From contig JADFXX010000004.1 in NCBI GenBank assembly GCA_015233335.1, positions 79,237 through 143,236 on the forward strand: 64,000 nt of DNA, in the 5' to 3' direction. The notes beneath the pieces are model-generated. The model saw nothing but the letters and a program-made list of their open reading frames with translations. It searched no databases and was not told the origin of the DNA. The DNA comes from Candidatus Omnitrophota bacterium. Its GTDB lineage: Bacteria; Omnitrophota; Gorgyraeia; Zapsychrales; Fredricksoniimonadaceae. How positions within the stretch are numbered: position 1 is the first letter of the stretch; each line of letters opens with the position of its first letter. This document shows positions 3,393 through 31,298 of the stretch, piece by piece. Made by a program: the position numbers and the translations under genes.

Positions 3393-4937
3393 TTATAACC
3401 TTGCGCTGACGCCGATTTTCATACCCTCGACATCGACTTTAATAATTTTAACCTGGAGCTTATCGCCAGCTTTAAGTGCTGCGGCCTGAGTCTTTTCAAT
3501 TTCCGAAGAATAAACTAAAGCTTCGATGTCATCTTCCAATTTTACAAAAACTCCGAAATTAGAGTTCATGATGACAACAGCTGGAACAATGGCACCTACG
3601 GGAAATTTATCAGCTATGCTGTTCCAAGGATTAGCCTGTAGCTGCTTGAGTCCCAAAGTAATCTTTCGGGCTTCAGTTTCAACAGACAGGATGCTGACCT
3701 GTACTTCCTGCCCTTTTTGAACAACTTCCTGAGGATGGTTGATTTTTTTGGTCCAGGACATATCAGAGACATGGATCATGCCTTCGAGCCCGTTGCCTAA
3801 TTCGACGAAAGCACCGTAATCAGTAAACCCCCGGACAACACCTTTAACAATCGAACCGACACTAAATTTAGCGGCCGCATTGCTCCACGGATTTTCTTCT
3901 AACTGTTTCATGCTCAAGGAAATGCGCTTAGCATCTTTATCCACATTGATCACTTGAACCTCAATAACATCCCCTAATTTAAACATTTCCTGAGGGTTGA
4001 CCATTTTCTTCTGCCAAGTGATTTCGGAAGAATGCAGGAGGCCTTCAATGCCTTTGTCAATCTCAACAAAAACACCATACGGCATAATATTGACAACTTT
4101 ACCCTTAATCCGGGCACCAGGAGGGAATTTAACGACCGACTCATCCCAGGGGTTTGAGGTGATCTGTTTGAGCCCCAACGAAACTTTGGAATTGTCCTTA
4201 TCGAAGTCCAGAATCAAAACCTCAAGCTTCTGCCCTACAGAAACGATCTCTGAGGGATGATTAATGCGGCTCCAGCTCATATCTGTGATGTGCAAAAGAC
4301 CGTCCACTCCTCCTAGATCAATAAACGCCCCAAAATCGGTGATTCCTTTGACTGTGCCGCGACGTTTCTGTCCCTTTTTGAGCTCATTCCAAAGTTTTTC
4401 ACGAACTTCTTCCCTTTCCTTCTGTACCATTTCACGACGGGAAAGGATCAAATTGCGGCGCTGCTTGTTCATCTTGGCCACCACAAACTTGTAATTGTGG
4501 GCGGTAATGTCATGGTTAGACAAACCTTTGAAAGCTGACAAAGACATCGGTAAAAAAGCCTCGATACCGAAAACATCAACAATATACCCACCCTTGACCG
4601 CACGCATGATCCGGCCTTCGAGGATATCCCCTTCATTAATGTCATCAGAAATCTTCTGCCAGCCTTTCAGCCGTTCGGCCTTGGCATAGGACAGAATCAG
4701 ACGGCCATTGTCATCCTCAATATTTTCAATCAAAACCTCAAGCTGCTGCCCTATGGCCAATTCGGTGGGGTTACGAAATTCTTCTATCGGGACGAATCCT
4801 TCAGACTTAAAACCAATGTCGACGATAACCTCCTTAGGGGTGATTGCCGCGATGGTTCCTTTTGACACCTCGCCTTCCTTAATATCCTTCAAGGTGCTAG
4901 CGTACAACTCTTCCATTACTGATCTATCTGCATCCAT
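3393..4937 (-). CDS. rpsA: 30S ribosomal protein S1
   Basis: 514 aa made of repeated S1 OB-fold modules (GxVxxIxxxGxFVxL patterns recur about 6 times). Confidence 0.92.
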   Translation of the reverse strand: MDADRSVMEELYASTLKDIKEGEVSKGTIAAITPKEVIVDIGFKSEGFVPIEEFRNPTELAIGQQLEVLIENIEDDNGRLILSYAKAERLKGWQKISDDINEGDILEGRIMRAVKGGYIVDVFGIEAFLPMSLSAFKGLSNHDITAHNYKFVVAKMNKQRRNLILSRREMVQKEREEVREKLWNELKKGQKRRGTVKGITDFGAFIDLGGVDGLLHITDMSWSRINHPSEIVSVGQKLEVLILDFDKDNSKVSLGLKQITSNPWDESVVKFPPGARIKGKVVNIMPYGVFVEIDKGIEGLLHSSEITWQKKMVNPQEMFKLGDVIEVQVINVDKDAKRISLSMKQLEENPWSNAAAKFSVGSIVKGVVRGFTDYGAFVELGNGLEGMIHVSDMSWTKKINHPQEVVQKGQEVQVSILSVETEARKITLGLKQLQANPWNSIADKFPVGAIVPAVVIMNSNFGVFVKLEDDIEALVYSSEIEKTQAAALKAGDKLQVKIIKVDVEGMKIGVSARL

Positions 4938-5077
4938 GGATTTAAAACCTCTTTCTTTACAGGAATTCTTTGCACGAATAACTCATCCCGCCAGGCGGGA
5001 TACATCGACAAAGTCTGGTAATTATGCCAAAAAAGTCTTAAATGTCAAGAAATTCTTTGTCTGGTCAATGGAATTTT

Positions 5078-5668
5078 TTAAAACGGCTTTGGGGCCAAGG
5101 CGTAAATTTTATCTAAGATACGCCCGGATGCTTCTTCATAACTGGAAGCATCACTGACGGAGAATGGCTCTCCGAATGTGGCAAACACACGTCCCCTTTT
5201 AAAGAATTTAGCGCCTCGAGGCAAGACATGATCGGTCCCCTGGACAAAAACAGGCACGACCGAAACCCCGGATTTCATGGCTAAAAAACCAGCCCCCGGT
5301 TGAGCTCGGGAAGGCTGATTGCCGATACGCCGGGTACCTTCCACAAAGATCAAAATCACCCGGCCGTTTTTCAAACGCTTGAGAGCTTCTTTCATGGCGC
5401 CTAAATCCGCCTCACCCCTTTTGACCGGAAAAGCCCCGAGGCGGGTTAAGACGAACCCCAAGGCCCCTTTAAATAATTCGATCTTGGCCATAAAATTAAT
5501 CCGTCGCACGGAACAAATGCCTAAAACCACCGGATCCAGGTAACTGGCGTGATTACTTGCAAGAATAAAAGCGCCCTTTCGAGGAATGTTACTAGTCTGA
5601 TAGGTACTAAAAGGAAAAAATAACCAGCTCACAACTTTGGTCAAAAAATAAACAATGTAATAAATCAT
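5078..5668 (-). CDS. plsC: 1-acyl-sn-glycerol-3-phosphate acyltransferase family
   Basis: 196 aa. It has the acyltransferase motif NHASYLDP (NHxxxxD), FVEGTR and an N-terminal TM segment. Confidence 0.8.
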   Translation of the reverse strand: MIYYIVYFLTKVVSWLFFPFSTYQTSNIPRKGAFILASNHASYLDPVVLGICSVRRINFMAKIELFKGALGFVLTRLGAFPVKRGEADLGAMKEALKRLKNGRVILIFVEGTRRIGNQPSRAQPGAGFLAMKSGVSVVPVFVQGTDHVLPRGAKFFKRGRVFATFGEPFSVSDASSYEEASGRILDKIYALAPKPF

Positions 5669-21124: not shown

Positions 21125-21802
21125 TTAGGCAGGAATATGATAGCACTTCAAGTGGGATTGAAGCTTCCGGACGTCCAACTGCCCCAAAGCTGTGGGCTTA
21201 CGCAAAAATGTATACGTGTACAAGCTGCCTGCGGCCGGTAAGATAAGACGAGACACCGCGCCCAATGGCCCTAGGGAGATCGTGATCAAAGGATGTTTGC
21301 GATGCTGATGGGTAAAGGCGATCATATCCATCACATCATCCCAGCTTTTCGCGAAGGCCGCGATTTTGACAATATCCGCCTTGGCGCTAAGTGATTTTTT
21401 AAGGATAGAACCCAGATCTGTAGGCATAGTATCCAAATAATGGCTTGAGATCATGACCTTTTTGGCCATTTGATGAGCTTTTATTACGACCTGTTTTAAT
21501 AATGGAGAAGAGAATTCAATATCGATCATATCCACATGCGGCAAACCCTCTTCGATAATCCTCCATTTAAGACGATCAGAAAAAATTTTACGGGCCCCTT
21601 CTTTTTTCTGATTGCGTACGGTCAATAATAAAGGAATTTTTAAAAGCCTGCGGCGTCTCACTTGAGCGGCAACATAGGCCGGATCCAATTTTTTAAACAA
21701 ATCCGCGCGCAGCTCGAGCAAACCAACGCCCAAACTCTTGATTTGGGCGTTGGTTTCCTGGTCGGTAATAACAAGTGCGATACGTGAATTGATTTTTGAC
21801 AT
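21125..21802 (-). CDS. aroD: Type I 3-dehydroquinate dehydratase
   Basis: Motifs: [14 protein letters not shown] and the VKIAAF Lys motif. I chose the start at ATG 21802 (MSKINSR...). The longer track ORF extends into the inverted-repeat element. Confidence 0.8.
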
Positions 21803-21834
21803 TCCAGTTAGAGCTCGATCCATTAGTGCGGATG

Positions 21835-21993
21835 AACAGCTATTATGTCTTCGGCACATTAAGGAATTTTTTGCCAAAAGTCTTCTTAATTTTACGGCAA
21901 GAATGTTCCAAATAAAGAGAATCTTTAGAACATTGTTGCCGTAAATTTAAGAAGACGGCAAAAATATTCCCTGCCGAAGACATAATAGCTGTT
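21835..21993. repeat. Nested inverted-repeat (long-hairpin, MITE-like) element, copy A
   Basis: 22-bp perfect terminal inverted repeats: AACAGCTATTATGTCTTCGGCA at 21835-21856 and its complement at 21972-21993. Inner arms also pair. The element is colinear with copy B at 29615-29793, in the opposite orientation, at roughly 80 percent identity. Confidence 0.8.
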
Positions 21994-22002
21994 TATCCCT
22001 CA

Positions 22003-23604
22003 CTAGATAACAGCTTCCGCTTCTTTGGCCGCCATGTCTAAAAACGACTTGATACGGCGAGAACGGGTCGGGTGGCGCAATTTGCGCAAGGCCTTGGATT
22101 CAATCTGGCGCACACGTTCGCGGGTGACGTTAAATTCCGCCCCCACCTCTTCCAAGGTACGGCTGGTGCCGTCCATGATACCGAAGCGCAATTCCAAAAT
22201 TTTACGTTCACGGTCATCCAAAGTCGATAGCACCGAGGTGATCTCTTCCTTGAGCATAGAATGCAAGGTCGCATTCGCCGGTGACACCGCCTTTTTATCT
22301 TCGATAAAATCCCCGAAGTGGGTGTCCCCTTCATCGCCGATAGGCGTCTGCAAGGAGATCGGCACTTGGGAGATCTTCAAGATCTCCTTGACCTTGACGA
22401 CTGGCAGGCGCATTTCCTTGGCGATTTCCTGGGCGGAAGGCTCACGGCCGTACTCCTGCACAAAGACGCGCGAGACCCTGATAATTTTATTGATCGTCTC
22501 GGTCATGTGCACCGGAATACGGATGGTGCGTGCCTGGTCCGCGATAGAACGCGTAATGGCCTGTCTGATCCACCAGGTGGCATAGGTCGAAAATTTATAC
22601 CCGCGTTTATATTCAAATTTTTCAACGGCACGGATCAAGCCCATATTGCCTTCCTGGATCAGATCCAAAAAAGACAGACCGCGGTTGATATATTTCTTTG
22701 CAATGGAGACGACCAATCGTAAATTCGCCTCGACCAACAATTTCTTGGCCTTATTAAAACGGGATTGCCGGGTCTTGATCTCCCGCAGCTGCTCCTTGAC
22801 CTTCTCGACGGGCTCACCTAATTCCTTTTGCAAAGCAATGAGCTGTCTTTTAAATTCAGGTGCATTGGCCGGTTTTTTCTTGACCTTCAGGTGTCTTTCA
22901 ACACGTTCGATGTTGGCAATAAGATCGCTGATCTTAAGGACAATTTCCTCGTTGATCGTTGAAGTCAGCTTGAATTCCGCGATCGATTTAGCGGAAATAT
23001 CAGAGCCCACTCTTGTATGCCGCACATGCTCAAGGATATGGGCCAGGTCCTTCATCAGGCGGCCGCGACGTTCCAATTCATCCTTGATCACATCTTCCGC
23101 ATTGATCTCATCGCGCAAAACCTGATTGATAATGCTCAATGCTTCCTTGCGTGCGTAGTAGGTCTTGAACAAGGCCTCCGCGAACCGCAATTCCGCCTCC
23201 TCAATACGTTTGGCCAAAGAGATTTCTTCTTCACGGGTCAACAAGGGAATAGACCCCATCTGTTTGAGATACATTTTAACCGGATCATCCAAGGGGATGA
23301 ACTTATCGGAATAAACATCATCCTCCTTGTTTTCCTCGCGCAGGCGCCGCACCTGCTGTTCTCGGCTTTCTTCCACCGCGTCCTCTATGACGGGGGCCTC
23401 TTCGCCGGTATCGACGACCTTGATGTCCTGGCCGTCGAGCACATCAAACACCTGGTCGATGTCTTCGGAAGAATCGATGGCATCGGACAAAGTTTCGTTG
23501 ACGTCCTCATAGGTCAAAAAGCCTTTCTTTTTGCCGAGGGTCACCAACTTGTCCAAATCTCCCTGCAGATCTTTAGGATCTTTTTCTTTGACAGGTTCTT
23601 TCAT
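22003..23604 (-). CDS. rpoD: RNA polymerase sigma factor RpoD (sigma-70)
   Basis: 533 aa with regions 1.2 to 4. Motifs: [38 protein letters not shown] and [20 protein letters not shown]. Confidence 0.95.
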
Positions 23605-23619
23605 AATGTCCTCATTTGA

Positions 23620-25392
23620 TCAACTGGTTTTAAGCGACTGATTAAACTGCTCGCGAAGCTCTTCCAATTTCTGGCCATCCCCCTCGGCCTCAGCTTGGCG
23701 GATGGCTTGCAACAATTGCCCCCGGATTTTCTTTTGTCTTTCCTTCTGGATCTTTCCGATACAATCCTGAAAAACCCGGGCCGCATCAGTTAACTTGCCC
23801 TCTTCCATGCTAATTAAACGGGTGACCAAACTCTGGGCCGGCTCATTATTTAAAAGCATCAACAGATCGTTGATCGACCACTCTCTTTGCTGAGAGGCCA
23901 CCTCCCAAATTCCCTGCACCACCTGACGCATCTGTCCATCTGAAAAATCTTCGGGGCTGACGGCCTCACCTGCGGCTTTGACCCACGCCGCATCCTTTAA
24001 AAACAACGCCAGCAATAATTCTTCCGTATTGACGCTCGAAGCTGATCCCTTGGCCCTATCCTCGGGACTTTTGCCAGGCACCTGTCGATTCACGCTGGCC
24101 GGTGCCTGTTTAAACAATACCGACTCCGGGACGCTCAAAAGACGGGCGAGCTGCCGGGTCAATTCATACTTGGCCACTTCATTCTTAAACCGTCCGATGG
24201 TCAGAAGCAATTCCTGACTGATCTTAGATTTGCCCTCAACCGTTGCCAGGCCATATTGCCCCTTAAGCCAATTGAATTTAAAATCCAAAATGGACTGAGC
24301 GTCCTTAATACGCGCCCTGAAGGCCTCAAGGCCTTGCTGGCGTATGAACGAATCAGGGTCCTCATCTTGGGCCAAAGTCGCCACACGCACGTTCATACCT
24401 TCATCGATCAACAGATCAAGACTGCGCACAATGGCCGATTGGCCGGCGGCATCAGTATCAAAGAGCATCACAACATTCGACGTATAGCGGCGGATCAATC
24501 TGACCTGTTCGCTTGTTAAAGCCGTGCCTAAAGAGGCCGCAATATTTTCGATCCCATGGGTGTAAGGCATGATCATATCCATATAGCCTTCCACTACGAT
24601 CATTTGATCCAATTTCCCCGCCGCGAGTTTAGTCAACTGCAGGCCAAACATATGCTGGCCTTTAGTATAGAGTACGGTCTCGGGAGAGTTGATATACTTG
24701 GCGCCGTCAGACTCTTCCATTGTGCGGGCCCCAAAAGCGAGGGGACGGTTTTGAATATCAAAGATCGGAAAAATGATCCGGTTACGAAATCGGTCGTAAT
24801 GCCCGTTTTTACCCTCGCGGGCAATGATGAGCCCCGCTTTTTGCATCAACTCTTCGCTGATCCCTTTGGATCTCAAATGTTTTAAAAGAGCGTCCCACTC
24901 ATTGGGGGCGAACCCCAATTGGAATTTCTTGACTGTTTCCAAATCGACCCCCCGGCCTTTAAGATAATCCCGGGCCAAACCCGCGTCGGCTTGCCGGTGG
25001 GTCAACAAAACATCATGAAAAAAAAGAGCTGCCAGTGTATTAACTTTGACAATCTCCTCGCGCAACTGGCGTGAGGGATTAGGCGCATCCGAGGCGTCTT
25101 GGGGGACCGCGATCCCTGCTTTATTGGCCAAAAACCGAACGGCCTCGGGAAACTCCAAATGTTCCTGGCGCATGAGAAAACCAACCGCATTACCTCCCAC
25201 ACCGCAGCCGAAACAATGAAAGATCTGCTTGTCGGGATTGACCACGAACGAAGGCGTTTTCTCATGATGAAAAGGACAAAGAGCTTTAAAATTGCGACCG
25301 GCCTTTTTTAAGGCCGTATAATTGCCGATGATCTCAACAATATCCGAACGTTCAATAACCTGATGAATGACATCATTGGGGATCAATCCCAT
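23620..25392 (-). CDS. dnaG: DNA primase DnaG
   Basis: Zinc ribbon CPFHHEKTPSF...HCFGCG and TOPRIM EGYMD...DTD. The ATG at 25392 (MGLIPNDVI) is preferred over the track's TTG at 25407. Confidence 0.92.
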   Translation of the reverse strand: MGLIPNDVIHQVIERSDIVEIIGNYTALKKAGRNFKALCPFHHEKTPSFVVNPDKQIFHCFGCGVGGNAVGFLMRQEHLEFPEAVRFLANKAGIAVPQDASDAPNPSRQLREEIVKVNTLAALFFHDVLLTHRQADAGLARDYLKGRGVDLETVKKFQLGFAPNEWDALLKHLRSKGISEELMQKAGLIIAREGKNGHYDRFRNRIIFPIFDIQNRPLAFGARTMEESDGAKYINSPETVLYTKGQHMFGLQLTKLAAGKLDQMIVVEGYMDMIMPYTHGIENIAASLGTALTSEQVRLIRRYTSNVVMLFDTDAAGQSAIVRSLDLLIDEGMNVRVATLAQDEDPDSFIRQQGLEAFRARIKDAQSILDFKFNWLKGQYGLATVEGKSKISQELLLTIGRFKNEVAKYELTRQLARLLSVPESVLFKQAPASVNRQVPGKSPEDRAKGSASSVNTEELLLALFLKDAAWVKAAGEAVSPEDFSDGQMRQVVQGIWEVASQQREWSINDLLMLLNNEPAQSLVTRLISMEEGKLTDAARVFQDCIGKIQKERQKKIRGQLLQAIRQAEAEGDGQKLEELREQFNQSLKTS

Positions 25393-25410
25393 AAAACTTA
25401 CATCCAAAAA

Positions 25411-26155: not shown

Positions 26156-29100
26156 TTAAACCGCGGCCGGGACAGCCATAGAAGGCTCAAGACGAACAGA
26201 TGCTTGAGGTGGCTGGGGCTTGTATTCATTGAATTTAACGGACACAATGCGGGACACTCCGCGTTCCTGCATGGTCACGCCATACATAATGTCGGCCGCG
26301 GCCATGGTATTTTTATTGTGAGTAATAACGATAAACTGGGCTATTTTAGCAAACTCTTTAAGCAGGAGTGCGAAGCGGTCCACGTTGGATTCATCCAAAG
26401 CCGCATCAATTTCGTCCAAGACGCAAAAAGGACTGGGATTGACTTTAAATACCCCGAAAATGAGGGCGATCGCGGTCAAGGTCTTTTCCCCGCCGGAAAG
26501 CAGGCTGATGTTTTGTAATTTCTTGCCCGGAGGTCTGGCCACAATATCAATACCGCACTCCAGAGCATTATCAGGGTCAAGCAAAACCAGCTGGGCTTCC
26601 CCTCCCCCAAAAAGCATACGGAAGTAGATCTTAAATTCTTCATTGACCCGGGTGAAAGTATCAGTGAACATCTGACGGGTAGTGCGGTTGATTTTCTGGA
26701 TAGTTGATAAAAGCTGTTCACGGGCCGTCAATAAATCGCTTTGCTGTTTAGTCAAAAACTCATAGCGGCCTTTGAGTTCTTCAAATTCTTCGATCGCCAC
26801 CAGATTGACCGCTCCGTAAGATTCGCAGCGTTTTTTCAACCGTTCGATTTCCAGGGCCAGCTCTTCGGTGTTCAGTTGGGGTTCAAAAGCTTGCTCGACG
26901 ATCGGTTCGGTTCCCTGGGTTGCTTTCACATTCAGAGCTATTTCGCTTGGCAGCGGGCTTGAGGACACGTTCCCTTCGGGAACATGTCCCCGGGTTAGCG
27001 GCACTGCTTCATTTTGTATTTGATCTAGATCTATCCTGTAGGCCTGCATCAGGCGGTCTTTGAGGGATCTTTGGTTAAACTGCACTTCCTGCTGGCGCAT
27101 CTGCTGATTATGCATGTCTCCTTTGACCCGTACTATTTCATCCTCGATACCGCGTATGCCGTTGTGCAATGAATTCAGGTGCCGGGACATTTCTTCTTTT
27201 TTAGCTGTATGGTCGTTTAAAATCATGCCTAAAGATTCTTTTTTCTCCCGCAGCTGTAGGATGATCTGCCCCAACAAAACAATATCTTCCCTGACCTTAA
27301 CTTTTTTAGCTTCTAGTTCACGGTTTTCCGACTCAAAGCGCGCAATGTCTGCCAGATCGCGGTCAAGATTTTGGGAATGCAGCAGCAGATGATCTTCATA
27401 ACCTTTGCGTTTATCAGAAAGGGCGGAATTTTCAGCTTCTAATTGCGCGATGGTCACATTCAATTCCGACCTCTCTTGGATCTTGGCGGCAATGCTCTCC
27501 TGCTTGAATTTAATGTCCTCCTGGCAACGTGTGATCTGTCCGCTAATACCATCCAAATTCAGGGTAAGCTCGTTTTCCTGGACCTTCAAGGAGGCCAGCA
27601 GGTTTTCCACTTCCCCAAATTCACCCGTAAGCACATCCAGTTCACCCACCAATTTCCCGTTGACCTGCTCAAAATCACTTTTCTGGGCCTCAAGGACCGA
27701 GAGCTTCTTTTCCTGCTGCTGAATATTTTTAAGAACTTCCTCAATTAAGCCCGTTTGCTCCCTGATGCTCTGGTTTAAATGAGTGCGGGCCTCGAGCGCT
27801 TGTTCTAATTTTCTGTTGATCTGATCAACGCGGTCTTCTAAGTACTGCAAATCCAATTCCACATATTTAGTTTCATAAGTGATCTCATACAGTTCGGGGG
27901 ACTCTTCTGTGGCAGGAATGACCCGGACATCCTTGATCTTGCCGATAATGCCGGTCTGTTTGGCGCTTGGGGCAACCTTGGCAATAAAGCGGCCTTCCAC
28001 GACAGGGTCAGGGATATCCTGGTATTGCACCTGCATTTTCTGAATAAATTCCTTTTGGGACAAAAGGAAAACGTGATTTTTTTCTAAGTCGTCCACCAAG
28101 GCTTCCTGAACAAAAAATCGGCTTTGGGTCTCCTGTAAAGAATGTCGACGTTGACTGCAATCCGCCTCTAGTTGTTGTACTTGGTACTTCGTCTGCCCCA
28201 AGGCAGAATCAAGGGCTTCACAACGCTCTGCCACCTGCACCTTTTCATTCTTGATCTTGGAATTTTCATGTTCCAGACGGGTTTTTCGCCCCAGGGTCTC
28301 AAGCGTTGCCTTCATGTTTTCCGTTAACCGGTTTTTAAAGGCCACCTGCTGGCCATGAAGGCCCAACATTTCTCCTTCCACCTGATCAATAGACGCTTTA
28401 GCTTGGTTGATCGCGTGCATTAATACACCCAGTTCAACATGCTTTTGCTGCAGTTGCTCCTGAAAAGCTGACAGGTTTTCATCCAGACGCGTGATATTTT
28501 CCTTGACCTCTTCAATTTTAGCCTGATGCACACCGCAACGGCTGAGGCTTGCCGCCTTGTCTGTTTCCAGACGCTGGCAGGTCTCATCCATATTTTGCAA
28601 GCGCTCTTCATTAAAAGAAATCTGGCGGGTATTAATGACCGCTTCGTTTTCTAAATGGATATCTTTGGCTTTAAGCTCATTGATGCGGTCTTCAATTTCT
28701 TGAAGCTGTTCGTTTTCCCCGCTGATCCGGTTATTCAAGTCTTCCAACTGCCTGGTCAATTCCGTTTCCTGGATCTGCAAAGCCCTGACGGCCGCCGCGA
28801 TCTCTTCCCCCTCATCATTCAGACGCGTCATCTGCTGGCGGGCATAAAACAGCTCATAATTCTTCAGGACCTCAAATTCCTCCTTATAACGCTGGGCTTT
28901 TTTGGCCTGGCGTTCAATGGAGCCGATCTGACGCTTAACCTCGACGACAATATCATTAATACGCAGCAAATTGCCCTGCGTATCTTCCAGTTTATTTAAA
29001 GCTTCTTTCTTTTTGCTTTTGTATTTTGTGATCCCAGCGGCCTCATCAAAGATCTGGCGGCGGTCATCCGGTTTTGCCGAAACCACCAAGTCGACCTTGC

Positions 29101-29530
29101 CCTGCTGGATCAAGGAATACGCTTCAGCACCGACGCCGGTCCCTAAAAAGAGCTCCACCACGTCTTTTAAGCGGCAGACATTTTTATTGAGCAGATATTC
29201 GCTTTCGCCCGAGCGAAAAAGACGGCGGGTGACGATGACTTCATCGCAGTCAAGAGGCAGGATCCTTGATTCATTAGAAAAGGTAAGGCTGACTTCCGCG
29301 AACCCCAAGGGGGCTTTCTGGTCGGTGCCGTTGAAGATGACATCTTCCATCGATGAGCCGCGCAATTCCTTGACGCTTTGCTCACCTAAAACCCAGCGGA
29401 TGGCATCGAATACATTGCTTTTGCCGCAGCCGTTGGGGCCAACGATGGCAGAAATGCCGGGCTGGAATTCAAGCACGGTCTTCTGGGCAAACGACTTGAA
29501 CCCGAATATTTCCAACTTTCTGAAATACAT
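26156..29530 (-). CDS. smc: Chromosome segregation protein SMC
   Basis: 1124 aa. Walker A is GPNGCGKSN. Long coiled coils follow, then a C-terminal LSGGEKTLTAIALIF plus LDEIDAALD. Confidence 0.93.
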   Translation of the reverse strand: MYFRKLEIFGFKSFAQKTVLEFQPGISAIVGPNGCGKSNVFDAIRWVLGEQSVKELRGSSMEDVIFNGTDQKAPLGFAEVSLTFSNESRILPLDCDEVIVTRRLFRSGESEYLLNKNVCRLKDVVELFLGTGVGAEAYSLIQQGKVDLVVSAKPDDRRQIFDEAAGITKYKSKKKEALNKLEDTQGNLLRINDIVVEVKRQIGSIERQAKKAQRYKEEFEVLKNYELFYARQQMTRLNDEGEEIAAAVRALQIQETELTRQLEDLNNRISGENEQLQEIEDRINELKAKDIHLENEAVINTRQISFNEERLQNMDETCQRLETDKAASLSRCGVHQAKIEEVKENITRLDENLSAFQEQLQQKHVELGVLMHAINQAKASIDQVEGEMLGLHGQQVAFKNRLTENMKATLETLGRKTRLEHENSKIKNEKVQVAERCEALDSALGQTKYQVQQLEADCSQRRHSLQETQSRFFVQEALVDDLEKNHVFLLSQKEFIQKMQVQYQDIPDPVVEGRFIAKVAPSAKQTGIIGKIKDVRVIPATEESPELYEITYETKYVELDLQYLEDRVDQINRKLEQALEARTHLNQSIREQTGLIEEVLKNIQQQEKKLSVLEAQKSDFEQVNGKLVGELDVLTGEFGEVENLLASLKVQENELTLNLDGISGQITRCQEDIKFKQESIAAKIQERSELNVTIAQLEAENSALSDKRKGYEDHLLLHSQNLDRDLADIARFESENRELEAKKVKVREDIVLLGQIILQLREKKESLGMILNDHTAKKEEMSRHLNSLHNGIRGIEDEIVRVKGDMHNQQMRQQEVQFNQRSLKDRLMQAYRIDLDQIQNEAVPLTRGHVPEGNVSSSPLPSEIALNVKATQGTEPIVEQAFEPQLNTEELALEIERLKKRCESYGAVNLVAIEEFEELKGRYEFLTKQQSDLLTAREQLLSTIQKINRTTRQMFTDTFTRVNEEFKIYFRMLFGGGEAQLVLLDPDNALECGIDIVARPPGKKLQNISLLSGGEKTLTAIALIFGVFKVNPSPFCVLDEIDAALDESNVDRFALLLKEFAKIAQFIVITHNKNTMAAADIMYGVTMQERGVSRIVSVKFNEYKPQPPQASVRLEPSMAVPAAV

Positions 29531-29614
29531 ATCATTACTTTATAACAACTGACAAGAGAGTCAACGAGGATTTCAATTATTTTTACGACATATAAATCCA
29601 TGAATTTCCTGTAA

Positions 29615-29793
29615 GGTAAGGATGAATAGTTATTATGTATTCGGCACGGAATATTTTTGCCGTCCGCTTCGGTTTACAACAAAAATGTTCTAAAGATTCT
29701 CTCTATTTGGAACATTTTTGTTGTAAAGCCTCGCGGACATTTGGCAAAAAATTCCCGAATGTGCCGAATACATAATAACTATTCATCCTTACC
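29615..29793. repeat. Nested inverted-repeat (long-hairpin, MITE-like) element, copy B
   Basis: 33-bp perfect terminal inverted repeats: GGTAAGGATGAATAGTTATTATGTATTCGGCAC at 29615-29647 and its complement at 29761-29793. The inner arms TTTACAACAAAAATGTTC / GAACATTTTTGTTGTAAA flank a 19-nt loop, TAAAGATTCTCTCTATTTG. Confidence 0.85.
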
Positions 29794-29831: not shown

Positions 29832-30062
29832 CGCAGGGATAGGGTTGTTCTTTTCAACTCACTGTCATTTTTAGCCAAAAATTTTTTGTTTTTTCGGCCC
29901 CCCCTTGCTGAGCAAAAAACAGGGGATCTAGGATGTCTGAACTTGTTTGAGCTCTTTATTTCCAGAGAAATAAAGAGCGAGTTGTTCAGACACCCAAAAA
30001 ATAATAAATTTTTGACGTTAAGAAAATGACCGTGAGTTGAAAAGAACAACCCTATCCCTGCG
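29832..30062. repeat. Second, unrelated inverted-repeat element (MITE-like, non-coding)
   Basis: 31-bp perfect terminal inverted repeats: CGCAGGGATAGGGTTGTTCTTTTCAACTCAC at 29832-29862 and its complement at 30032-30062. They extend to about 40 bp with one mismatch. There is an internal second hairpin, TGTCTGAAC...GTTCAGACA. Confidence 0.8.
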
Positions 30063-30080: not shown

Positions 30081-31298
30081 TTATTCTAGAACACCTGTCT
30101 TGCAGACTTGAGCGAATTTCTTGGCGCTTTCTCTGACGGTCCTTTGCTGCGTTTGATAATTGACATCGATCAATCCGAATCTGGGGGCAAAGCCATAAGC
30201 CCACTCGAAATTATCCAAAAGCGACCAGTAAAGATACCCCTTAACATGGACACCTTCTTGCATGGCCAGATGGACATTCTTAAGATGCTCGCGGATAAAT
30301 TCCCACCGCTGCTGATCATCCGTCGCACAAATACCGTTTTCCGCGATGATCACCGGTAAATTATATTTTTTGAGATTTAAAAGCACATGGTGAAGGCCTT
30401 GGGGATAAATATCCCAGCCTAAAAAATTCTTCTTCAAGGGATGGTGATTACCCTTACAGGTTTCCATCAGCAAGTTGCCGATCCACCAGCTACGCACATC
30501 CACCAAATGCCTCGAATAATAATTAACTCCAATAAAATCAAGGGCTTTCTGCCGTGTTAAACGATCAATAATTTCCAAGTTATACAATTGTTCTCTTAGG
30601 GCCACGGCCCAGCGGTTTCTTAATCCTTGGGTACAGCCGACAATGGCCTGCATATGATGGGCGATGCTGACAGCAGGTGGCGCGATGTTTAACTCATGAT
30701 AAATCTTATGGATCAACCGATAGGCCTCGATATGGGCTTCGTTTAACTGGTCTCCGACGGCCTTGGTCTTAAAAAAAGACCTTTCCTGCGGAGGCCACAT
30801 CCCCCAAAGATAGGCATGAGAAAAATAAATGGTCGGCTCATTGATGGTAAACCAATAGTGGACATGTTTGGCTAAAACGCGAGTAACAAAATCGCAGTAA
30901 CGCAAGAAGCGTTTCACACAACGGGGATTGACCCACCCGCCCTGCTCGCTAAACCAGATCGGGTTGGTAAAATGATGCAGGGTCACCATGGGCTCTATAT
31001 GGCGAGCGCGCAGGCTCTTGATCACATCGATGTAATGGTCCAGGGCCTCAAGCGAAAGTTCTCCCTCCTTAGGCTCAATCCGGCTCCATTCAATGGAGAG
31101 ACGGTGGGCATTGTGGTTTAAACTTTGGGCCAAATCAAAATCCTGCCGGTAAAGCTCATAATGACGGCAGGCATCGCCGGAGTTTTCCTTCCCGGCCTTC
31201 TTTTCCCACGGCCACCAATCCGCATGAACATTTTGGCCCTCGACCTGATAAGAAGAGGTCGCAGCACCCCAGAAAAAGTCTTGAGGAAATTTGATCAT
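30081..31298 (-). CDS. Glycoside hydrolase family 1 beta-glucosidase
   Basis: 405 aa. Features: FFWGAATSSYQVEG, TINEP (acid/base Glu) and IIAENG (nucleophile Glu). Confidence 0.9.
   Translation of the reverse strand: MIKFPQDFFWGAATSSYQVEGQNVHADWWPWEKKAGKENSGDACRHYELYRQDFDLAQSLNHNAHRLSIEWSRIEPKEGELSLEALDHYIDVIKSLRARHIEPMVTLHHFTNPIWFSEQGGWVNPRCVKRFLRYCDFVTRVLAKHVHYWFTINEPTIYFSHAYLWGMWPPQERSFFKTKAVGDQLNEAHIEAYRLIHKIYHELNIAPPAVSIAHHMQAIVGCTQGLRNRWAVALREQLYNLEIIDRLTRQKALDFIGVNYYSRHLVDVRSWWIGNLLMETCKGNHHPLKKNFLGWDIYPQGLHHVLLNLKKYNLPVIIAENGICATDDQQRWEFIREHLKNVHLAMQEGVHVKGYLYWSLLDNFEWAYGFAPRFGLIDVNYQTQQRTVRESAKKFAQVCKTGVLE

Follow-up and report, generated by a model that had tools for sequence, protein, structure and literature searches.

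The 64,000-nt stretch of a Candidatus Omnitrophota contig analyzed here, hereafter the window, carries two copies of a long hairpin, members of a hitherto undescribed family of intergenic, non-coding repeats in uncultured Omnitrophota. We favor, as somewhat the more probable account, that these constitute a new non-autonomous dispersed hairpin repeat family of Omnitrophota-type bacteria, in which the arms are homogenized at the DNA level and a strand-specific, single-stranded hairpin presents a central recognition module. For the paired changes that distinguish the arms of different copies, the best explanation is miscopying of DNA in a selfish hairpin element, rather than a functional RNA. 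No description of such an element in Omnitrophota came to light in our searches of the literature.

The first of the two copies, copy A, occupies positions 21830–21998 on the minus strand of the window, and copy B occupies positions 29615–29793 on the plus strand, such that the reference ('+') strand of the element corresponds to the window minus strand in the former and the window plus strand in the latter. Copy B aligned with the reverse complement of copy A colinearly over 169 nt, with no internal indels and 82% complementarity, in agreement with the identity of about 80% given in a preliminary description of this DNA, which had located copy A correctly but had drawn it too short (21835–21993). 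As that description had also proposed, each copy (approximately 170–180 nt) folded into one long hairpin, with a free energy of −107.5 kcal/mol (z −18.3) for copy B and −96.9 kcal/mol (z −17.5) for copy A, and none of 200 shuffles of either sequence was as stable. Four paired differences between the arms of B and A had been reported and all were present, namely GTATTCGG/CCGAATAC versus GTCTTCGG/CCGAAGAC, TAGTTATT/AATAACTA versus CAGCTATT/AATAGCTG, ACAACAA/TTGTTGT versus ACGGCAA/TTGCCGT, and TCCGC/GCGGA versus TCTTC/GAAGA, amounting to at least 7 compensated pairs. The loop motif was found at two sites in the window, those of copies A and B, against a chance expectation of 0, and a mismatch-tolerant scan of the window exposed no degenerate extra copies. 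No long ORF ran over either copy and no target-site duplication was found at either, as previously stated.

Within both copies a conserved core could be delimited, which extended from 21863 to 21970 (minus strand; GGAAT...ATTCC) in copy A and from 29648 to 29755 (plus strand; from GGAATATTTTTGCCG to ..AAAAAATTCC) in copy B, and which contained the apical loop motif at 21908–21928 and 29690–29710 (CTAAAGATTCTCTCTATTTGG, plus strand), respectively. The copy B core also held a single bulged A, a 3×3 internal loop (GCTTCGG/CCTCGC), and a 4-nt bulge, ATTT (29739–29742), and was directly followed by a 5-nt bulge, CGAAT (29756–29760). The unpaired part of the apical loop comprised approximately 12 nt, with three A-T pairs and one T.G pair closing it; hence, the 19-nt near-invariant loop described earlier was accurate in its conservation, which held in more than 100 copies, but not in its size.

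All of the neighboring genes were on the minus strand, specifically dnaG (23620–25407), rpoD (22003–23604), aroD (21125–21802), a CvpA-like gene, smc (26156–29530), and a GH1 glycosidase (30081–31298). Copy A was placed 4 nt past the rpoD stop codon (22003–22005) and 27 nt short of the aroD start codon (21802), while copy B, of which the reference strand is antisense to the flanking genes, was 84 nt upstream of the smc start codon (29530) and adjoined a second repeat, termed element 2 (29832–30062). Judged by their own loops and bulges, the two copies had opposite orientations on one replichore, in a region of uniform GC skew. A promoter or terminator within the element was considered and none was found by scanning, with neither a sigma-70-type promoter nor a U-tract terminator located in copy B. 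A promoter-like site (TTGACT-16 nt-TAAAGT) was present on the minus strand at 29537–29564, between hairpin B and the smc start codon; the number of promoter-like sites in the scan was no higher than the chance expectation. Two tRNA genes on the minus strand (1657–1730 and 1979–2052) were the sole matches in the window to Rfam at gathering thresholds.

The copy search that had been suggested earlier showed that the hairpin extends well beyond the window. When MAGs, at one genome per species, were scanned for the loop motif, 15 further copies were recovered in six Omnitrophota-type MAGs, as well as two chance matches without a hairpin. Five of these MAGs are labelled Candidatus Omnitrophota and the sixth is labelled Planctomycetales, yet is syntenic with the window. 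Metagenomes were scanned using a left-arm pattern from which the apical loop had been excluded, and at least 120 stretches matched, approximately eight of which were chance matches in coding sequence, leaving more than 100 copies, with single assemblies containing at least 7–8 each. The apical loop was conserved in the metagenome copies although it had not been used to select them, and the segment reported as near-invariant (GGRATATTT..CCG) was likewise conserved in more than 100 copies, including those picked by the loop-free pattern. A phage or plasmid origin was rejected upon scanning viral contigs, which gave no matches. Rfam 15 contained no family for the hairpin at gathering thresholds, and a permissive threshold gave only generic miRNA-precursor-like matches (21–27 bits, versus thresholds of 62–195). 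The copies were located between co-directional genes in 54 of 59 cases and occurred in both orientations relative to these (31 versus 23 by strict calls, 47 versus 28 by looser calls), and many started no more than about 13 nt past the stop codon of the gene upstream.

Comparison of approximately 90 distinct full copies revealed a shared anatomy, with the element unit being one quasi-palindrome of 170–185 nt. Its centre, of about 108 nt (GGRATATTT to AAAATYCC), was strongly conserved, and comprised the 12-nt apical loop, the 3×3 internal loop (GCTTCGG opposite CCTCGC), and bulges of 1, 4, and 5 nt (a single A, ATTT, and TKAWT, respectively). The family consensus for the apical loop was TCTAAAGATTCTCTT(C/T)ATTTGGA, with a few discrete variants, and in two loci (L085 and L095) the apex was larger and of different sequence. 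In contrast to the centre, the outer stem (25–35 bp) was strongly divergent between copies and paired in each, with the outer 12–20 nt of both arms forming the most variable columns and conservation climbing toward the centre. In MITEs and REPINs, the conserved and variable parts are the other way round. The asymmetric centre may be a recognition module for a trans-acting protein, by analogy with REP/RAYT, IS200/IS605 ends, and integron attC; its conservation in more than 100 copies could instead reflect a function for the host.

Several derivatives of the standard unit were also seen. An internal-deletion form (L074, 720–880) had lost the apex and right inner arm, and its outer arms paired around the left inner arm that was kept. 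A small nested hairpin (ATATTCCCTGTT...AACAGGGAATAT) took the place of a portion of one long-hairpin arm in L017 (6700–6790; left arm) and L018 (3890–3960; right arm, with the loop also inverted). Additionally, stop-free frames of 100–350 codons ran through the hairpin in L016, L043, L046, L099, and 13 other loci, from which a recurring pseudo-peptide (...VYNKNALKFLFIWSIFVVNPRRLLAKNP...) could be read.

The statistical test of covariation proposed in the preliminary description was performed on a near-gapless alignment of 70 distinct copies, using the pairs predicted by RNAalifold. There were 68 such pairs, 44 of which had changes on both sides. Paired cells made up 95.0% of the observed total, as opposed to 77.7% when the 3′ partners were shuffled and 39.5–46.9% when they were slid, and cells changed on both sides numbered 828, as opposed to 241 and 110–182, respectively. 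The covariation score was 0.432, while shuffled partners gave 0.122, with 0 of 500 shuffles reaching the observed value, and slid partners gave at most 0.10. Co-evolution of the arms is therefore real, and statistically overwhelming. In one inner helix a single triplet had ten Watson-Crick variants, and in another a neighboring pair was split between G-C (44) and A-T (43); these two inner helices were Watson-Crick in 439 of 440 and 699 of 704 cases, and had no G.T pairs. Single-sided changes of the G-C to G-U type amounted to approximately 28 cells, versus the 828 double-sided.

The orthologous copies in the window (copy A) and L009 differed by a 5-nt indel that was mirrored on both arms, and outer-arm length varied from 14 to 32 nt across copies, with left and right being equal in 31 of 43. 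Moreover, the apical loop was reverse-complemented in L018 and L128, and an asymmetric internal loop had been turned perfectly complementary in L128, L022, and L106. When the template is switched during replication of a quasi-palindrome, single events give rise to compensated changes, mirrored indels, and loop inversion (PMC8794818, PMC8604942), and multi-base compensated changes, homogenization of arms, and spacer inversion are recognized as its footprints (PMC8794818, PMC8604942, PMC7202029). Template-switch mutagenesis accounts for the multi-base compensations, mirrored indels, arm homogenization, and inversion of loops or spacers, all four of which were present in the hairpin family; it is, however, a mutational mechanism rather than an element family, and leaves the conserved bulges and loop, and the spread of copies, unexplained. 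Because template switching makes compensated changes in single events, the covariation, which bears out that noted in the preliminary description, does not prove pair-by-pair selection, and the selection for pairing proposed there as one possibility needs qualification. Rather, the lack of wobble intermediates, the mirrored indels, the flipped loops, and the occurrence of both orientations point to template switching at the DNA level and not to selection on an RNA. Pairing of the arms would, accordingly to this mechanism, be kept mainly by one arm being copied onto the other during replication of the quasi-palindrome, each such event potentially yielding compensated substitutions, a mirrored indel, or occasionally an inverted loop, and copies in which bulges or loop had been erased would presumably stop propagating.

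These observations bear directly on the possibility of a structured RNA, either a cis-acting element in operon transcripts that affects processing, stability, or termination, like those proposed for REP and ERIC, or a small RNA gene, with the fold under selection and the loop acting as a protein or RNA binding site. The very strong covariation, the conserved loop and bulges, and the better folding of one strand (see below) would all fit such an RNA, as would the position of the copies in short spacers between co-directional genes, where they are probably transcribed, and the start of many of them close to the upstream stop codon. We nevertheless consider it unlikely. An RNA would be expected in a consistent orientation or with its own promoter, yet both orientations were found and no promoter-like site lay inside the element; G.U-type intermediates were almost absent; and the mirrored indels, the inverted loops of some copies, the variable presence at orthologous sites, and the failure to match any Rfam family beyond generic hairpins far under threshold all count against it. 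The earlier suggestion of a structured RNA or DNA element with a specific loop thus holds for the conserved loop and covarying arms, while its RNA form is not supported. Two known RNAs were also considered and rejected. 6S RNA, which has a rod shape of about 180 nt, does not fit a multi-copy element in both orientations that has no large central bubble and no Rfam match, and a retron msr/msd was dismissed since no reverse transcriptase was found beside the copies, the sole one being that of a group II intron which interrupts a copy.

The two strands of the hairpin were not equivalent. In arm-against-arm alignments, transition mismatches in the outer stem, read on the reference strand, were A.C in 60 cases and G.T in 11 (p = 3e-9), and were spread across numerous positions and unrelated copies. 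The A.C:G.T ratio was 32:5 when the reference strand was sense to the flanking genes and 16:5 when it was antisense; the bias thus keeps its direction regardless of gene direction and is not a mutation bias of replication or transcription, a possibility that we rejected for want of a flip. A.C mismatches are G.T wobbles on the complementary strand, and when folded with DNA parameters the latter was the more stable in 66 of 90 copies (p = 4e-8); RNA parameters gave 59 of 90 (p = 2e-4). Together, the mismatch bias and the better fold of the complement indicate that the hairpin of one particular strand matters. This better-folding strand ran antisense to the neighboring genes in 47 cases and in the sense direction in 28, and since it is mostly antisense and no promoter of its own was seen, a single-stranded DNA form is favored. 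Hence, the biology of the element appears to depend on a single-stranded hairpin of one strand, most likely as single-stranded DNA rather than RNA, as suggested by the orientation statistics and the rarity of wobble pairs.

Filled and empty sites could be compared at several loci. In L042, about 280 nt separated two genes that abut in L126 and L021, a block in which the long hairpin was accompanied by a small REP-like one and by a tail of approximately 75 nt. A hairpin in L021 was in turn without a counterpart at the orthologous site in L126. At the rpoD-aroD site, the hairpin lay 4–21 nt past the stop codon in the window, L009, and L041 and was lacking in L116, and at a second site it was 2–3 nt past a shared stop codon in L059, L063, and L071 and lacking in L103. 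These comparisons provided clean empty sites, but no target-site duplication or exact boundary, with the flanks being too diverged or compound for a duplication to be read. Approximately 20% of copies were flanked, at variable distance, by a direct motif that read CGCAT on the left side and ACGCATG on the other. Another motif, (C)TAGTG(A), was seen just left of the hairpin in the window (21999–22005) and in L009, L059, L071, L073, L062, and L080, and in several loci held the stop codon of the upstream gene; as it was present also in L116, which has no long hairpin at the site, it is native sequence at the rpoD-aroD site.

Copy A and its counterpart in L009 shared a private variant (GATAAACAGC) and are true orthologs. 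The L041 copy at this rpoD-aroD site, on the other hand, belonged to a different subfamily with a variant loop, and the same subfamily was found at the second site in the same metagenome (L071). Across nine orthologous filled pairs, identity was 0.69 in the outer stem and 0.80 in the core, versus 0.67 and 0.84, respectively, for random pairs, and copies were closer to others in the same assembly than to their positional orthologs. Two explanations for the divergent outer stems were discarded. Vertical inheritance of the outer stem with exchange of the core between copies is at odds with orthologs having outer stems no more alike than those of random pairs, and copying of the outer stem from the flank at insertion is at odds with outer stems that are homologous between copies and unrelated to the sequence of empty sites. 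The occupation of one site by different subfamilies fits repeated colonization of permissive spacers, gene conversion among the copies, or a combination of the two; it could also reflect host-level selection for occupancy. Such behavior, with different variants at the same site, has long been known for REP/BIME elements. Overall, the sequences show that the hairpin element has spread within genomes, where it is retained in the short intergenic spacers that separate co-directional genes.

Were occupancy itself under selection, the hairpin would be a DNA site maintained by the host, folded as single-stranded DNA or a cruciform (such as a signal for priming or primosome assembly, or a binding site for a structural protein), with copies homogenized by gene conversion. 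Occupation of the rpoD-aroD and second sites in genomes with about 20% flank divergence is compatible with this, as are the greater similarity of copies within an assembly, the strongly conserved centre, and a strand polarity independent of the direction of transcription. Related genomes nonetheless have hairpin-free orthologous sites, and copies were found that had been cut in half, had lost internal sequence, or were disrupted by element 2 or a group II intron, without apparent consequence. Furthermore, position and orientation in the window followed no regularity, copies A and B being opposite on one replichore, and no associated protein is known, such that we regard a host-maintained site as very unlikely. 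The intron mentioned above is in L028 (3444–5341), with Rfam matches for D1-D4 at 3476–3707 and domain V/VI at 5272–5339 and an RVT_1 ORF at 3913–5250; its 5′ exon is the left terminal repeat of element 2 and its 3′ exon consists of one half of a hairpin and then the right terminal repeat of element 2. A tandem direct repeat with a period of approximately 66 nt and 91–95% identity was noted in L012 (3873–4083), about 1 kb from a hairpin copy.

Other repeats recurred beside the hairpin, the most prominent of which was element 2. The MITE-like window copy of this repeat (29832–30062; 231 nt, no strand assigned) has 40-nt terminal inverted repeats, and the family as a whole measured approximately 235 nt, with terminal inverted repeats of about 35–40 nt (consensus CATTGTAAGKGATAAATTTGTTCTTTTTGCGACTGT...), an internal hairpin, and short forms of about 90–110 nt. 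It was also detected in L016 (3282–3522), L037, L057, L112, L113, L125, and L136. Element 2 was to the right of the hairpin in at least nine loci and was inserted at the hairpin apex in L113 and L125. Members of the family were thus beside or within hairpin copies in many genomes other than that of the window. Together with cases in which just its terminal repeats were seen, element 2 was beside approximately 10–15% of hairpin copies, far above the background of 0.05 motif matches per kb, and its association with the long hairpin is strong. There were also two families of small REP-like hairpins, GTCATTCCCGCGAAAGCGGGAATCCAG and GTCATTGCGAGGAGCGAAGCGACGAAGCAATC, neither present in the window, and such small hairpins were seen on the left flanks of the long one in L042, L092, L094, L098, L105, L127, and others. 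For GTCATTCCCGCGAAAGCGGGAATCCAG the arrangement was fixed, in that it was left of the long hairpin, 5–40 nt away, and in one orientation in 17 copies, versus 0/0/0 for the other arrangements, whatever the gene direction.

The proximity of element 2 raises the prospect of an ordinary MITE, that is, an internal-deletion derivative of a DDE-type IS, moved by cut-and-paste through terminal inverted repeats and perhaps by the transposase of element 2. The hairpin is indeed short, non-coding, multi-copy, and insertion-polymorphic, and in L038 two perfectly paired terminal repeats of the element-2 type bracketed it. In at least six loci an element-2 end stood alone to the left of the hairpin, and the CGCAT/ACGCATG motif recurred on both flanks. 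Yet MITE termini are conserved, and those of the hairpin were its most variable part; about 90% of copies had no element-2 terminal repeat nearby; no target-site duplication was found; and asymmetric bulges and strand polarity have no role in double-stranded cut-and-paste. Moreover, the transposase with matching termini that the preliminary description suggested looking for did not emerge: no recurrent transposase ORF was found near the copies and no parent IS was found in approximately 1 Mb of loci. We consequently see an ordinary MITE as improbable, and of the MITE family with co-evolving arms initially put forward, the dispersed, multi-copy, non-coding nature and the covarying arms were upheld, while the variable ends do not fit an ordinary MITE, and neither a target-site duplication nor a parent IS was found in these loci.

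Searches for other proteins gave a similar picture. Clustering of all ORFs of 128 loci and part of the window identified no protein family that travels with the hairpin. The only ORF cluster that recurred beside hairpins consisted of spurious ORFs through the hairpin itself, and the other recurring clusters were common families spread over the loci. Additionally, tblastn with approximate IS608, ISDra2, and E. coli RAYT queries against about 1 Mb of flanks and the window gave no match to a Y1/HUH transposase better than E = 1.

Among known systems, REPINs provide the closest parallel. These are REP doublets that form hairpins and are mobilized by RAYT transposases (Bertels & Rainey 2011, PMC3116915), and compensatory changes across their hairpin are common (PMC3116915). 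Like REPINs, the Omnitrophota hairpin is non-coding, extragenic, and present in many copies, with the whole unit forming one long hairpin in single-stranded DNA or RNA that accumulates compensatory changes, and it is likewise non-autonomous, persists vertically in a lineage, and has lineage-specific variants at the same intergenic sites of related genomes. REPINs, however, have invariant ends (the REP 16-mers) and a variable spacer, and here the centre was invariant and the ends varied, such that conserved inverted terminal REPs around a variable spacer were not found and the pattern was in fact the opposite. REPINs are also shorter, at approximately 70–110 nt versus 170–185 nt, and the hairpin had no GTAG/CGTC-type tag, no copies flanking a single-copy gene, and no RAYT match in the flanks and window with the approximate queries.

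ERIC/IRU elements of enterobacteria are imperfect palindromes of more than 100 bp that reside in transcribed intergenic regions in either orientation, sometimes at orthologous sites. The hairpin shares with these, and with MITEs that are palindromic over the whole element, its size class, intergenic placement, presence in both orientations, and occupation of orthologous sites. It differs in having no sequence relationship to ERIC and being from another phylum, and in that ERIC is conserved over its full length, whereas the hairpin is intrinsically asymmetric between its strands and has an apical module that is conserved.

Integron attC sites and the ends of IS200/IS605 elements resemble the hairpin in another manner, since they too act as single-stranded hairpins in which pairing is kept with variable sequence and conserved extrahelical bases give polarity. 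The conserved bulges and favored strand of the hairpin would, by analogy, represent a functional resemblance to attC and not membership. The hairpin is much longer than either, is outside of cassette arrays, and has no intI neighbor and no R''/R' core sites (RYYYAAC/GTTRRRY), nor does it have the separate left and right hairpins that flank tnpA/tnpB in IS200/IS605. An integron attC identity was rejected, with ends such as GGATGAAYAG...CTRTTCATCC misfitting the core sites, the copies being single and dispersed, and no integrase cluster being nearby. As the hairpin does not have the conserved ends of MITEs, the conserved terminal REPs of REPINs, or the core sites of attC, and matches no Rfam family, we class it as a member of none of these, and the best-supported placement is that it is closest in kind to REPINs and other MITEs in which the whole element is a palindrome.

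A further, bolder interpretation is that the hairpin represents a type of bacterial mobile element not yet described, in the form of a long single-stranded DNA hairpin with a central recognition module, made up of the loop and bulges, of which the ends are set by structure (the foot of the stem) rather than sequence and which is propagated strand-specifically by a putative enzyme, possibly that of element 2, or, in a variant of the same idea, in which signals belonging to the favored strand drive its transcription into an RNA that forms a long hairpin with a conserved apical module. We view this as doubtful. Points against the preferred explanation are that the ends are the least conserved part, with no target-site duplication or exact boundary seen, such that a transposase would have no evident cue for where to cut, and that the search of the flanks with approximate queries gave no mobilizing enzyme. 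We retain a non-autonomous dispersed hairpin repeat, homogenized at the DNA level, as the preferred explanation, for which a mobilizing protein, a single-stranded DNA intermediate, and a role for the loop and bulges would be expected.

The hairpin family has implications for both the annotation of genomes and the discovery of RNAs and mobile elements. Long, near-perfect palindromes of this type probably break MAG assemblies and yield spurious ORF calls, and gene callers are likely to annotate the read-through frames as hypothetical proteins. For covariation-based RNA discovery the family serves as a caution, in that it passed all of the controls for pair covariation and the pattern still points to template switching in DNA. 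The asymmetry of A.C over G.T mismatches, in turn, offers a handle, from sequence only, on which strand is biologically single-stranded, and could be applied to other palindromic repeats. Moreover, the inverted pattern of conservation challenges the usual assumption that transposases read the ends of elements. Finally, with more than 100 copies and very clean covariation, the hairpin adds a well-populated family, from an uncultured phylum, to the few bacterial hairpin replicators, such as REPINs and ERIC.
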